Source: a virus. From it: 64,000 nucleotides of DNA. Below the pieces are notes generated by a model. It had not been told where the DNA came from. It did not search any database and was given only the letters and a program-made list of their open reading frames with translations. Below, piece after piece: positions 4,830 to 23,508 of this stretch. Position 1 is the stretch's first letter, and each line of letters begins with the position of its first letter. The DNA lies in IMG/VR virus record IMGVR_UViG_3300008450_000013, positions 22,811 to 86,810 of that record; one strand, 5' to 3'. The position numbers were made by a program, and so were the translations under genes.

Positions 4830-4832
4830 AGA

Positions 4833-5056
4833 ATAAGGGAAGGGATCAGCCAACCCCGACAGGATTGAGGAGTTCCTTATAAACCTCGCTTAGATTGTAA
4901 ATACAACAGCTCTCCACTGATTTCTCCTTGGCACGTTCCTCCTCCTCGTGCTTTCTCCTGTCAGTGTCTGAGAGCTGTTCTGTTTGCAATTTTCACAACA
5001 GTGTTTCGTCCCATATCTGGTTAGTAGATTCAGCTCTTATCGTGGAACACTGTTGT
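4833..5056 (+). ncRNA. putative structured ncRNA with three anti-Shine-Dalgarno loops
   Basis: Stems 4833-40/4873-80, 4894-4903/4981-90, 4905-14/4970-79, 4915-20/4961-66, 4931-35/4947-51, 4995-5007/5044-56. Non-Watson-Crick pairs are G-U on the plus strand; loops are CUCCU-rich. Confidence 0.7.
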
Positions 5057-5141
5057 AGTTTCGTGGAGAGGGTAGCATTATGGCTACTAAGGTTCTGGCA
5101 GGTAGTTTAGTGGCGTGGAACTAAGAATTTAAAGGAGTATT

Positions 5142-5240
5142 ATGGTTAAAAAAGATCGAGTAAAGTTTCAACCTTGCTCAGAGAAACAAAAGCTAATTTT
5201 GATGGATAACACCACGGACGTTATCCTGATAGGCGGTGGT
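5142..5240 (+). CDS. terL: terminase large subunit, exon 1 (33 aa, MVKKDRVKFQPCSEKQ...VILIGGG)
   Basis: AAAGGAG RBS; Q motif and first half of Walker A; frame stops shortly after unless spliced. Confidence 0.88.
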
Positions 5241-5474
5241 GAACTTGCGCCTCCGCATTAAAAACAACTTCTTAAACGGTGAAACTCTCTAGTAGACAAT
5301 ACCGTGCCAAGCCCCTGAAGGGTGCAGTGCGTAACGACCAATCCGAAAGGATGTAGGGCTAAGTAGCTCGAAACAGAAGTCCTCGAAAGAGTGAAGATAT
5401 GGTCTGGTCTTTATGGTGACATAAAGCAGCTTAAAAAGCGGAAGTAGATTAACGAACTACTTTGAACACAAACA
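5241..5474 (+). mobile_element. group I intron (IA-like, 234 nt, no homing endonuclease ORF)
   Basis: P1 GCGGUGGU/GCCUCCGC with U-G at the splice site; P3 ACUUCU/AGAAGU; P4 ACGGU/ACCGU; P7 GACCA/UGGUC; P7.1, P7.2, P8; J8/7 GAAGAUA; P9 with GUGA loop. Removal restores IGGG|AGGGKS. Confidence 0.92.
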
Positions 5475-6896
5475 GCAGGAGGAGGCAAATCGAGGATTTG
5501 CCTTACAAAGAATTTAGATGGTATTAAAGATGGAAAGTTCCGTTGCGTTATTCTGAGACGTTTTGAGCCAGAGCTTAAAAAACAAGGTGGCTTGATTGAT
5601 GAATCCAAGAATATCTACCCACACTTTACAAAAATACCTTACAAAAGTCAACAAAAATTATGGGAATTTCCATCTGGAGCCACAATCGGGTTTTCAGCAA
5701 TATCTTGTGACGATGATTTAGGGAGCTGGCAGGGTAGCCAACTAACGAGGGCTTTGATAGACGAGGCGGCTGATAAGTGGACTGAAAAACAAGTTTTGTT
5801 CTTACAATCTCGTTTGCGTACAGTTGGCTCTGATATTCACCCGCAACTGATTATGTCTTGCAACCCAGACCCTAACAGTTTCTTATTTGAGTGGGTTAAG
5901 TTCTGTCTTGATGAAGACACAGGAGTACCAAAAGAAGGTACTGAGTATCTTATCAGATGGTTCTGTGTAGAAGATAACAAAGCTAAATGGGCTGATAGTC
6001 CAGAAGAGTGCTATGAATTATATGGTGCTCCCAAGAATCTAATTTATGCTCATGGAATGACAGAAGAACAGATGAACGCATTCTCTAAAGAAGAGAAGAT
6101 GCGGTTGTTCATGCCTAAGTCATTCAGGTTCATTCCAACTGGTGTTTTTGACAACCCATATCTACTCCCACCAAAGAATACAAGTTACTTAGCATCTCTC
6201 CTTTCCCAACCTTATGTAAATCAGTTAAAATTTTTACATGGAAGTTGGACAGCACGAGAACTTGGGAGTTCTTACTTCGACAGAAAGTGGGTTCAAATCG
6301 TTGACCAACCTCCCGTAAATGCAACAGCTAGGATACGTTCTTGGGACTTCGCTTCAGAAGAAAAGACAAAAACTAACAACCCCGATTGGACAGCAGGTGT
6401 AAAAATGTCTAGGGATAGGTACGGTATTTACTATATCGAGGATGTTGTCAGAGTGCAGATGCGGATTGACGGTGTTTTAAAAACCGTCATTGAGACTGCT
6501 AAAGCTGACGGTGTAGGCGAATGTGAAGTCTGCATTCCAGTTGACCCTGCAGCAGCGGGTAAGAGTAGTGCTCACTTCTTTCAGAAGGTATTAGCAGAAA
6601 ATGGCATTCCTTGTAAGAAAGCTCAGTCCTCTGGACACAGTAGCAAGCTCACAAGATTTAAACCGTTTTGTGCATTAGCTGAGAGTGGTAGTGTTCGTGT
6701 GGTTCGAGGGGATTGGAACGATGCATTTTTTGCAGAGCTTGAAGCATTCTCTGGTGACAAAGCAATTGAGAGAACTCAGAAGAACGACCAAGTTGATGCT
6801 TGCTCAGATAGTTTTAACAATTTAGCAAGACAATTACAGCTACCTGTATTCTCAGTACCGTCCCTAACAAAAGCCTCTCCTGTCCCAACAATATAG
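5475..6896 (+). CDS. terL: terminase large subunit, exon 2 (spliced product about 506 aa)
   Basis: AGGGKS, LIDEAA Walker B, SCNP, RSWDFA and NDQVDA nuclease motifs. Confidence 0.93.
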   Translation, partial: AGGGKSRICLTKNLDGIKDGKFRCVILRRFEPELKKQGGLIDESKNIYPHFTKIPYKSQQKLWEFPSGATIGFSAISCDDDLGSWQGSQLTRALIDEAADKWTEKQVLFLQSRLRTVGSDIHPQLIMSCNPDPNSFLFEWVKFCLDEDTGVPKEGTEYLIRWFCVEDNKAKWADSPEECYELYGAPKNLIYAHGMTEEQMNAFSKEEKMRLFMPKSFRFIPTGVFDNPYLLPPKNTSYLASLLSQPYVNQLKFLHGSWTARELGSSYFDRKWVQIVDQPPVNATARIRSWDFASEEKTKTNNPDWTAGVKMSRDRYGIYYIEDVVRVQMRIDGVLKTVIETAKADGVGECEVCIPVDPAAAGKSSAHFFQKVLAENGIPCKKAQSSGHSSKLTRFKPFCALAESGSVRVVRGDWNDAFFAELEAFSGDKAIERTQKNDQVDACSDSFNNLARQLQLPVFSVPSLTKASPVPTI

Positions 6897-22036: not shown

Positions 22037-23508
22037 TTTCAGACGCAGAATATACAACATGGCTATCAACACCCTCAGCGATGAGGTGTATTCTGGTTGA
22101 AGCAACAGCTAACGTCAGTGGCGTAGAAACTGTCAGATATATGTCTAACAGGGGCTACGTCACTAGTCCAACTGACAGTCCTGCTAACACTTCTTATCGG
22201 AGTATTATTACAGGGGGTGTTAAGCTCTCTGAGAGTTTATCTCTCAGCTCAGAGCCAACTATTTCTGTAGGTGATGTCACAATCACCAATGCTAATGGAG
22301 AGCTGGATAGTTGGCTTAACGATGTGTGGGATAGCAGAGGTATTTCAATCTACTTCGGTGATATGAAGTGGGCTAGAAGCGATTTCAGACTGATCGTAAA
22401 AGGCATGATATCAGGGATAGGGAGTCAGAGTAGAAATGAACTCACTCTCTTTATCCGTGATAGCTTACAACGTCTGAACACTCCTGTGACGGATACTAAA
22501 CTTGGTGGAAGTACAGTCAATAAAGACAAGCTTCTTCCTTTAGTGTTTGGCGAAGTGCATAATGTCACACCACTCCTGATTGATGCTACATTACACGACT
22601 ACAAAGTTCACAATGGGGCTATCGAAGGATTTATTGAGTTCAGAGATGAAGGAGTGCCTATCTCAGCTACTCCTACTCTTGGCACAGGTGTAGGACGCCT
22701 CACAGCAAGTCCGTTTGGTAATATTACGGCTTCTGTGCAAGGCAGTAAGCCTTCTACCTACTCAAATCAGATTACGGAAATAATTAAGAATCTAGTAAAG
22801 AATTGGGGACAGGTTGATAAGCGTCTCTTAGATGCTGATATTGACACAGCAAATTTTGCAGCATTTGCAGCAGCTAACACAGCTCCTGTGGGAATCTATC
22901 TAGACAGCAAAGCTAATGTGCTGGAAGTGTGTCAGCAATTGGCTAACAGTGTTGGTGCGCAGATTACAATGTCTCGCACAGGATTGTTACGCTTGCTGAG
23001 AATTGATTTTCCTCCAAGTGGAACTCCTAAGCTTATCACAGCTTCTGATATGGTTGAGAGAAGTTTAAAGATTGCAAGTAGAGAGCCTGTTCAGTCTGCT
23101 GTGCAGATTGGTTATTGCAAGAACTACACAATACAAGATAACTTAGCAACTATCATTCCAGACGATCATAAAGCATTATACAGCAGAGAATGGTTGACAG
23201 CTAAAGCTAGTGATAGCACAGTGAATACGAAGTACAAGCTTCAAACAGAACCAACACAGAAGGACACATTGTTACAGGTAGCTTCAGACGCTACAGCAGA
23301 GGCTACAAGGCTTTTAAATGTCGTCAAGGTGCAAAGAACAGTGTATGAGTTTACAGGCTTTGCAAAGAGCTTAGAACTCGTCTTAGGACAAGCTGTTACA
23401 TTGAAGCATAGTCGATTTGGTTTGAGTGCTGGTGTGTTAGGTGTTGTTGTAGGATTAGAGCCTCAGTGGGGGAATGAAGTAAGGGTTAATGTAAAGGTTA
23501 TGATTTAA
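22033..23508 (+). CDS. tail tip / baseplate hub protein
   Basis: Follows the tape measure gene; LPLVFGEVHNVTP motif. Confidence 0.7.
   Translation: MISDAEYTTWLSTPSAMRCILVEATANVSGVETVRYMSNRGYVTSPTDSPANTSYRSIITGGVKLSESLSLSSEPTISVGDVTITNANGELDSWLNDVWDSRGISIYFGDMKWARSDFRLIVKGMISGIGSQSRNELTLFIRDSLQRLNTPVTDTKLGGSTVNKDKLLPLVFGEVHNVTPLLIDATLHDYKVHNGAIEGFIEFRDEGVPISATPTLGTGVGRLTASPFGNITASVQGSKPSTYSNQITEIIKNLVKNWGQVDKRLLDADIDTANFAAFAAANTAPVGIYLDSKANVLEVCQQLANSVGAQITMSRTGLLRLLRIDFPPSGTPKLITASDMVERSLKIASREPVQSAVQIGYCKNYTIQDNLATIIPDDHKALYSREWLTAKASDSTVNTKYKLQTEPTQKDTLLQVASDATAEATRLLNVVKVQRTVYEFTGFAKSLELVLGQAVTLKHSRFGLSAGVLGVVVGLEPQWGNEVRVNVKVMI

Follow-up and report, generated by a model that had tools for sequence, protein, structure and literature searches.

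The terminal guanosine (omega-G) and the U-G wobble pair at the 5′ splice site are near-invariant parts of group I intron chemistry. Here we analyse a 64,000-nucleotide stretch of phage DNA, referred to below as the window (positions 22,811 to 86,810 of the IMG/VR virus record IMGVR_UViG_3300008450_000013), in which terL, the gene of the terminase large subunit, is split by a small group I intron that probably ends in A (omega-A). The closest precedent, likewise a group I intron with A in place of the conserved G as its last base, is ND5-717 of hexacoral mitochondria, whose exons are correctly ligated in vivo according to two reports (PMC8146996, PMC6545197); an earlier note on this DNA, made from the letters alone, had pointed to omega-A in hexacoral mitochondria, and correctly so (PMC8146996). 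ND5-717 is giant, obligatory, vertically inherited and organellar, with genes lying in P8, whereas the window intron is 234 nt long, phage-borne and without an open reading frame (ORF). ND5-717 is listed among host-factor-dependent introns (PMC3679873), and the authors of the coral work propose that omega-A blocks circularisation (PMC8146996). A further difference from ND5-717 is that closely related introns ending in G occupy the window intron's own site, and that its 5′ end leaves the splice sites ambiguous by one base.

Among phage introns, those of T4 td, nrdB and sunY, which we take to belong to subgroup IA, share the P7.1/P7.2 architecture of the window intron; helices P7.1 and P7.2 between P7 and the 3′ strand of P3 are presumably a trait of that subgroup. 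Introns are also known in phage terL genes, as described for Bastillevirinae (PMC11878797) and in a further report (PMC3984707). Like the window intron, which is predicted to be self-splicing, the subgroup IA introns and the published terL introns are self-splicing elements in conserved phage genes of DNA metabolism or packaging. None of these introns is reported to lack omega-G, and the available text of those two papers holds nothing on the terminal G or the wobble. Full-text searches of the literature, in which the Greek letter itself could not be queried, listed no group I intron of phages or bacteria that lacks omega-G.

The terL introns of Klebsiella Drulisvirus are ~70% identical to the core of the window intron over 177 nt; they sit elsewhere in terL, with a GIY-YIG endonuclease gene adjoining. 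In two such Klebsiella phages (PP934444.1 and PQ394119.1; L001 and L002) the terL annotation is broken into two or three parts that flank the GIY-YIG gene. Given the core identity, we regard the interrupting sequences as group I introns missed in annotation, which belong to the same broad family and occupy a different position in terL. No free-standing endonuclease was seen adjoining terL in the window.

Joins that rebuild the terminase P-loop

All features given below lie on the plus strand. The unspliced ORF that opens terL (5142–5261) is 39 codons long and reads MVKK...DVILIGGG before it runs into a stop. An exon 1 of 33 codons (5142–5240) would end in ...DVILIGGG, and exon 2 (5475–6896) continues with AGGGKS... 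in a frame that stays open for 473 codons to the stop, so that the P-loop GGAGGGKS is complete only once the exons are spliced. For comparison of the junction, 35 related terL loci were taken from IMG/VR. Fourteen of them have no intron at the site and read ...GGG|AGGGKS without interruption, the more distant PaP1 TerL has a P-loop of equal length, and the 33-residue peptide of exon 1 stands directly 5′ of the P-loop in related loci too (tblastn). Since the intronless relatives read straight through, the spliced mRNA must be GGU|GCA. The interruption at 5241–5474 is a group I intron, predicted to be self-splicing, which divides terL within its Walker A codons; as read from the sequence, it is inserted after the codon for the third Gly of the P-loop and before that for Ala.

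Enumeration of all joins between exon-1 ends at 5222–5249 and last intron bases at 5420–5491 gave 270 that keep the reading frame and contain no stop. The homologue-like ILIGGGAGGGKS arises from three joins only, namely (5239,5473), (5240,5474) and (5241,5475), where the first number is the last base of exon 1 and the second the last base of the intron, and in none of the three does U at the end of exon 1 occur together with a terminal intron G. From U5240 there are nine in-frame joins, in eight of which the last intron base is A and in one C. Other pairs of U and G sites were rejected, as they give a P-loop of the wrong length and leave no P1. By this enumeration, the P-loop would be rebuilt only by breaking one of two near-universal splice-site rules: the U-G wobble is found at the 5′ site only if the intron ends in A5474, and with the 5′ site defined by that wobble the intron does not end in G, a terminal G being obtained only if the 5′ site moves to G5241.

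We consider that the 5′ splice site probably lies after U5240 and that the intron ends at A5474. Alternatively, both sites could be shifted by one nucleotide, with the cut after G5241 (paired with C5248), G5475 as omega-G and exon 2 starting at C5476 (intron bounds 5242–5475). This arrangement breaks the wobble rule, and we think it unlikely. The join (5241,5475) yields the same peptide, and from the window sequence the two models predict identical ligated exons as well as an identical junction of an excised circle. Under omega-A the intron lies at exactly the same site as 12 canonical relatives, all inserted at T|G of the same codons, whereas the shifted sites would place it 1 nt away from them.

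When U5240 is joined to C5476, with G5475 as omega, the product is QEEANRGFALQRI, which meets a stop at the 14th codon. Splicing could in principle be mixed, with step 1 at U5240 followed mostly by use of G5475, giving a frameshifted dead mRNA, and only a minority of events at A5474, which would act as a brake on terminase. In favour of such leakiness, G5475 is the G nearest to the canonical guanosine-binding site, the U5240/G5475 join stops after 13 codons, and lowered splicing efficiency is reported for the omega-A coral intron (PMC6545197). However, G5475 forms the first pair of P10 and should be kept from the guanosine site; the GGU|CAG joint was not seen in RNA contigs, which held no exon-exon joint of any kind; and the scheme is pure conjecture. 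We regard it as distinctly improbable.

Predicted structure of the intron

A default Rfam search of the intron region gave no match, because the score of the intron, 44.9 bits, lies under the curated gathering score of 50 bits for RF00028. With a permissive search, RF00028 covers 5231–5426 over the full model (1–253) at 44.9 bits and E 3.8e-10, and the alignment sets the conserved splice-site U of the model on U5240. The 3′ end of that alignment, G5426, was rejected as a splice site, since it is merely the end of P9. In the same alignment the P1 hairpin spans 5233–5256, with 5233–5241 pairing to 5248–5256 around loop L1 (5242–5247). It contains the wobble U5240-G5249 and a U-U mismatch at 5237/5252, and G5241-C5248 is the sole pair beyond the wobble. 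The part of the guide sequence at 5244–5248 forms P10 with 5475–5479 of exon 2.

The region of P3 (5267–5380; strands 5267–5272 and 5375–5380) encloses P4 (5276–5281/5300–5305), P5 (5286–5288/5294–5296) and P6 (5306–5314/5320–5328). P7 spans 5336–5404 (5336–5340/5400–5404) and carries the guanosine-binding pair G5336-C5404; inside it, the minimum free energy fold places P7.1 (5341–5352), P7.2 (5356–5369) and P8 (5382–5391). The J7/9 bases 5407–5408 are proposed to form P9.0 with A5472-C5473. Downstream, the covariation alignment and the fold give P9 (5409–5414/5421–5426), P9.1 (5429–5431/5437–5439) and P9.2 (5441–5447/5457–5463), together 5409–5463, followed by a 3′ tail (5464–5474) that ends in A5474, the proposed omega-A.

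To this structure we aligned 14 distinct introns inserted at the same site, obtained from IMG/VR pattern scans and the terL loci (alignment A2), with duplicates merged (L040 with L015, L195 with L031, L057 with L052, L043 with L042, and L004 with the window itself). One further intron, L193, has its 5′ site in common with them; its 3′ end was not found. Among the 14 is the intron of G001, an 80-kb contig of a different phage with a TerL 32–44% identical. Its 5′ site is GGU|G..., and its 3′ end reads ...A|GCAGG ahead of AGSGKS. Across the alignment 89.3% of cells in the P1–P10 structure are paired and 39 of 66 pairs show changes on both sides; none of 500 shuffles matched that pairing, and slid controls reached 38–46%. 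P3, P4 and P5 are 100% paired, with five, four and two pairs, respectively, altered on both sides. P7 is also 100% paired, and its guanosine-binding pair is G-C in all 14. P9, P9.1 and P9.2 are 90–100% paired and P10, scored over four pairs (5244–5247 with 5476–5479), 98.2%, whereas P6 aligns poorly (43–50% paired). The folding energy of the intron alone is not significant (z = -0.85).

The splice-site pair in P1 is U-G in 14/14 introns, and the pair between intron position +1 and the guide is A-U in eight, G-C in three and of another kind in three. Under the one-nucleotide shift, an intact wobble would thus stand one pair below the cut, and the cut pair itself would be the one that closes the P1 loop. 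To our knowledge, G-C has not been described at the 5′ splice site of any natural group I intron, and in Tetrahymena the wobble reportedly directs the first splicing step. As G5475 makes the first P10 pair, with C5248, it should stay out of the guanosine site. Taken together, the intact wobble below G5241, the loop-closing position of the shifted cut and the engagement of G5475 in P10 lead us to prefer omega-A.

P9.0 points the same way, weakly. With an omega-A end, register k=2 gives two of two pairs, GU/AC in the window and AU/AU in G001, with covariation between the two; among the canonical introns, L191, L204 and L201, the nearest relative, have the same register. The shifted sites likewise permit a P9.0 of 2 bp (k=0; U5405-A5474 and G5406-C5473), but this register gives two pairs in 0/12 canonical relatives. 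Since 6/12 canonical introns form no 2-bp P9.0 in any register, we treat this evidence as suggestive. The length of the tail after the GAA motif (6–12 nt) fails to separate the two models.

The earlier note had proposed much of this arrangement, and every coordinate statement in it holds in the sequence. Its 5′ site after U5240, at the U5240-G5249 wobble, fits P1 and the Rfam alignment; its claim that GGU|GCA alone gives an in-frame Walker A from U5240 agrees with the join enumeration, as does its claim that G5475 used as omega-G soon leads to a stop. The P10 between exon GCAGG and guide CUUGC (5244–5248 with 5475–5479), the P9.0 that it placed between G5406-U5408 and A5472-C5473 (here as G5407-C5473 and U5408-A5472) and the canonical guanosine-binding pair G5336-C5404 that it described were all recovered, and so was its caveat that G5241 and G5475 leave the sites ambiguous by one base with the same mRNA.

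Relatives at the same site and the origin of the 3′ end

The last intron base (alignment column 302) is G in 12/14 same-site introns and A in the window and G001. The canonical same-site introns, for example L201, L044, L060 and L015, resemble the window intron in insertion site (GGT|GCN), guide sequence, core fold and P9.2 loop, and differ in that all 12 end in G.

In a tree of these introns the window intron has L201, an omega-G intron, as its sister (support 0.995); identity between the two is 83% over the intron as a whole and 85% within the core. By contrast, its last 22 nt (5453–5474) are 86% identical to G001 and 45–59% identical to all others. Because its 3′ end matches G001 while the rest groups with L201, the window intron is a mosaic. 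A similar likeness was found with L332, a canonical 311-nt group I intron of another phage (2687–2997; Rfam 79.3 bits) that splits a Ser codon and has sites U|...G|CAGG. Its 3′ module, comprising the end of P9.1, P9.2 and the tail CACAAA, is identical to window 5437–5472 over 36 nt, whereas its guide sequence and core differ from those of the window. The likeness of L332 and the window suggests, at the level of sequence comparison, that these introns exchange end modules.

Besides G001, viral scans aimed at additional A-type ends yielded nothing but the canonical intron L332, L343 and chance matches. In a scan of metagenome contigs for the A-type 3′ end, no upstream intron features were present among the 119 matches listed, and a scan of genome contigs with a guide-sequence pattern gave 15 candidates by GGT, none with a group I core, which we take as chance matches.

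Introns have also settled at neighbouring positions. Those of L006, L024, L020, L063, L022 and L056 lie 3 nt upstream of the window site, that of L019 lies 6 nt downstream and that of L332 7 nt downstream. Intron content varies even among the nearest relatives of the window: L006, whose TerL is 97% identical, carries its upstream intron at 1230–1445 and a second one, ~270 nt into exon 2, at 1767–1995 (81.5 bits); L011 (91% identical) has no P-loop intron and a group I intron at the second site only (1767–2009, 83.3 bits). This exon-2 intron is not in the window. Two long P-loop introns, L022 (~1.3 kb, with its 5′ site near 193 and exon 2 near 1486) and L193, probably hold a homing endonuclease gene. 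Intein-like insertions stand directly after the P-loop Lys (...GGGAGGGK|ALRHG...) in homologues P0060, P0086 and P0121, and also in P0083, P0089, P0093 and P0117, and Pfam Hom_end and LAGLIDADG_3 match some intein-bearing terminases. With introns at four or more positions and inteins as well, the P-loop codons form an insertion hot spot.

Recurrence of the A end in other sequencing runs

As the window derives from a metagenome assembly record (IMG/VR) and a single base decides the matter, an error with a true G at or next to 5474, or a dead gene in a defective phage, has to be weighed. A contig of depth 32.7 from the probable source run (X1) is identical to the window, the same intron end occurs in the unrelated assembly of the different phage G001 and in contigs of two further runs (X3 and X20), and exon 2 keeps its frame over 473 codons and encodes the two terminase domains. 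Judging from these contigs, the A-type 3′ end is not a sequencing error, and we hold an error or a dead gene to be very improbable.

The X3 run holds a 3,387-nt contig that is 90–95% identical across the whole of the stretch compared. Its differences within the intron are 5241 G>A, 5242 A>G, 5248 C>T, changes at 5318, 5417, 5442 and 5449, and one base deleted at 5433. Among the 40 of 56 differing places listed, which are ordered up to 5687, there is no change at 5474 or 5475; from the ordering, the kinds of change and the rate of exon differences at 5688–5900 we infer that the 16 unlisted places lie beyond 5687 and that 5474/5475 are unchanged. The changes at 5241 and 5248 together turn the +1/guide pair from G-C into A-U, the commonest form in the canonical relatives. 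In this variant the mRNA differs by model: splicing at the omega-A sites would give Ala, whereas the shifted sites would give Thr. Ala occupies that position in 67/67 homologues with a complete N-terminal P-loop, out of 134 examined; the other 67 have ORF calls that are truncated or intein-bearing, and those that start inside the P-loop also have Ala. The X3 variant is, to judge from its differences, the best single argument for omega-A.

An RNA library, the freshwater metatranscriptome X20, contains a 158-nt contig with the same intron tail. It runs in the order 5381–5475, four letters, 5245–5304, that is, with a back-joint of 231 nt, which is what a circle of the complete intron would produce in a close relative whose L1 is longer by one U. 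The joint holds a single G and so allows A5474-G5241 or G5475-A5242 and disallows G5475-G5241. The contig is indirect evidence that the intron is cut out at these ends in nature, and it is compatible with both models. None of the runs examined showed an exon-exon joint. Run X5 and a second X20 contig cover the conserved core at 5274–5313 only and were set aside as belonging to other introns.

The terL gene and its surroundings

The complete virus record is 86,810 bp long and has direct terminal repeats, and in the window terL is surrounded by packaging and head genes of the phage. A 312-nt non-coding gap (4830–5141) precedes terL, and a Shine-Dalgarno-like AAAGGAG (5131–5137), read from the sequence, stands ahead of its ATG at 5142. 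Exon 2 matches Terminase_6C (PF17289; 71.6 bits, E 9.5e-20) and Terminase_6N (PF03237; 25.8 bits, E 1e-5), so that the spliced product has both the ATPase P-loop and the C-terminal RNase H-like nuclease domain of a terminase large subunit. The ORF listing starts terL at an internal TTG (5592), as evidently does the public call (P0131, a 434-aa cluster member), with the result that exon 1 and the P-loop are lost.

Discussion

In the reaction that we envisage, the first step would be canonical, with guanosine attacking after U5240, the U of the P1 wobble. The 3′ splice site would then be set by P10 and P9.0 instead of by a terminal G, C5248..C5244 pairing with G5475..G5479 and G5407-U5408 with A5472-C5473, and the exons would be joined GGU|GCA to give ...IGGG-AGGGKS.... 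Both the ligation with A in an unchanged (G-C) guanosine-binding site and the phosphodiester bonds that would be cut are our inference. At the level of sequence, the comparisons made here establish the intron, its fold, its exon junction and the natural recurrence of the A end.

Several observations weigh against omega-A, and some of them are what the one-nucleotide shift would need. First, the two A-type introns sequenced in full, those of the window and G001, have G at intron position +1, as the shift requires, compared with 1/12 canonical ones. Second, all 14 introns keep G-C as the guanosine-binding pair and show no alteration of it in favour of A. Third, in L332 the same 3′ module is followed by a true omega-G and CAGG, so that G5475 could be omega by homology. 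Fourth, the A end of the window and G001 may, from the similarity of their 3′ ends, have one origin and not two. Fifth, full-length circles are the product of an attack by the terminal nucleotide on the 5′ splice site (PMC3679873); the circle-like joint in X20 suggests a terminal base that acts like a normal omega, and it is at odds with the coral proposal that omega-A prevents circularisation. The intron of that relative, which is known from the RNA contig alone, could start at A and have a true omega-G. Finally, the X3 evidence is a table of differences rather than readable sequence, with 40 of 56 places listed. Against the shift stand the wobble, the insertion site and the P9.0 register considered above, as well as the Thr that it would place in the X3 variant where Ala otherwise holds. 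In sum, the structural reading of the earlier note stands; its choice of omega-A over a shift of one nucleotide is favoured, while we still allow the shift a small chance of being right.

A likely, if speculative, consequence of an omega-A end is slower or helper-dependent exon ligation, which in the conjecture of the earlier note could throttle terminase synthesis. We also entertain a wider account, which in our judgement could go either way: a minimal, ORF-less phage ribozyme would ligate its exons with a terminal A and an unchanged guanosine site, P10 and P9.0 placing the 3′ site, and the omega-A end would be a module moved by recombination or homing among cores and among very different phages (those of the window, X3, X20 and G001), which may persist by tuning terminase expression or by limiting side reactions.

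On either reading of its sites, the intron would break a near-universal group I rule in an arrangement that recurs in nature, and the system is small. ND5-717, the published omega-A case, is giant, probably factor-dependent and hard to study, whereas the window intron is 234 nt long and ORF-less. The readings are moreover distinguishable, since in an X3-like variant with A at +1 the two models give different mRNAs. For annotation, gene callers that start terL at the internal TTG miss the P-loop. For phage biology, the intron bears on how exons may be ligated without omega-G and on whether ligation limits synthesis of the packaging ATPase.

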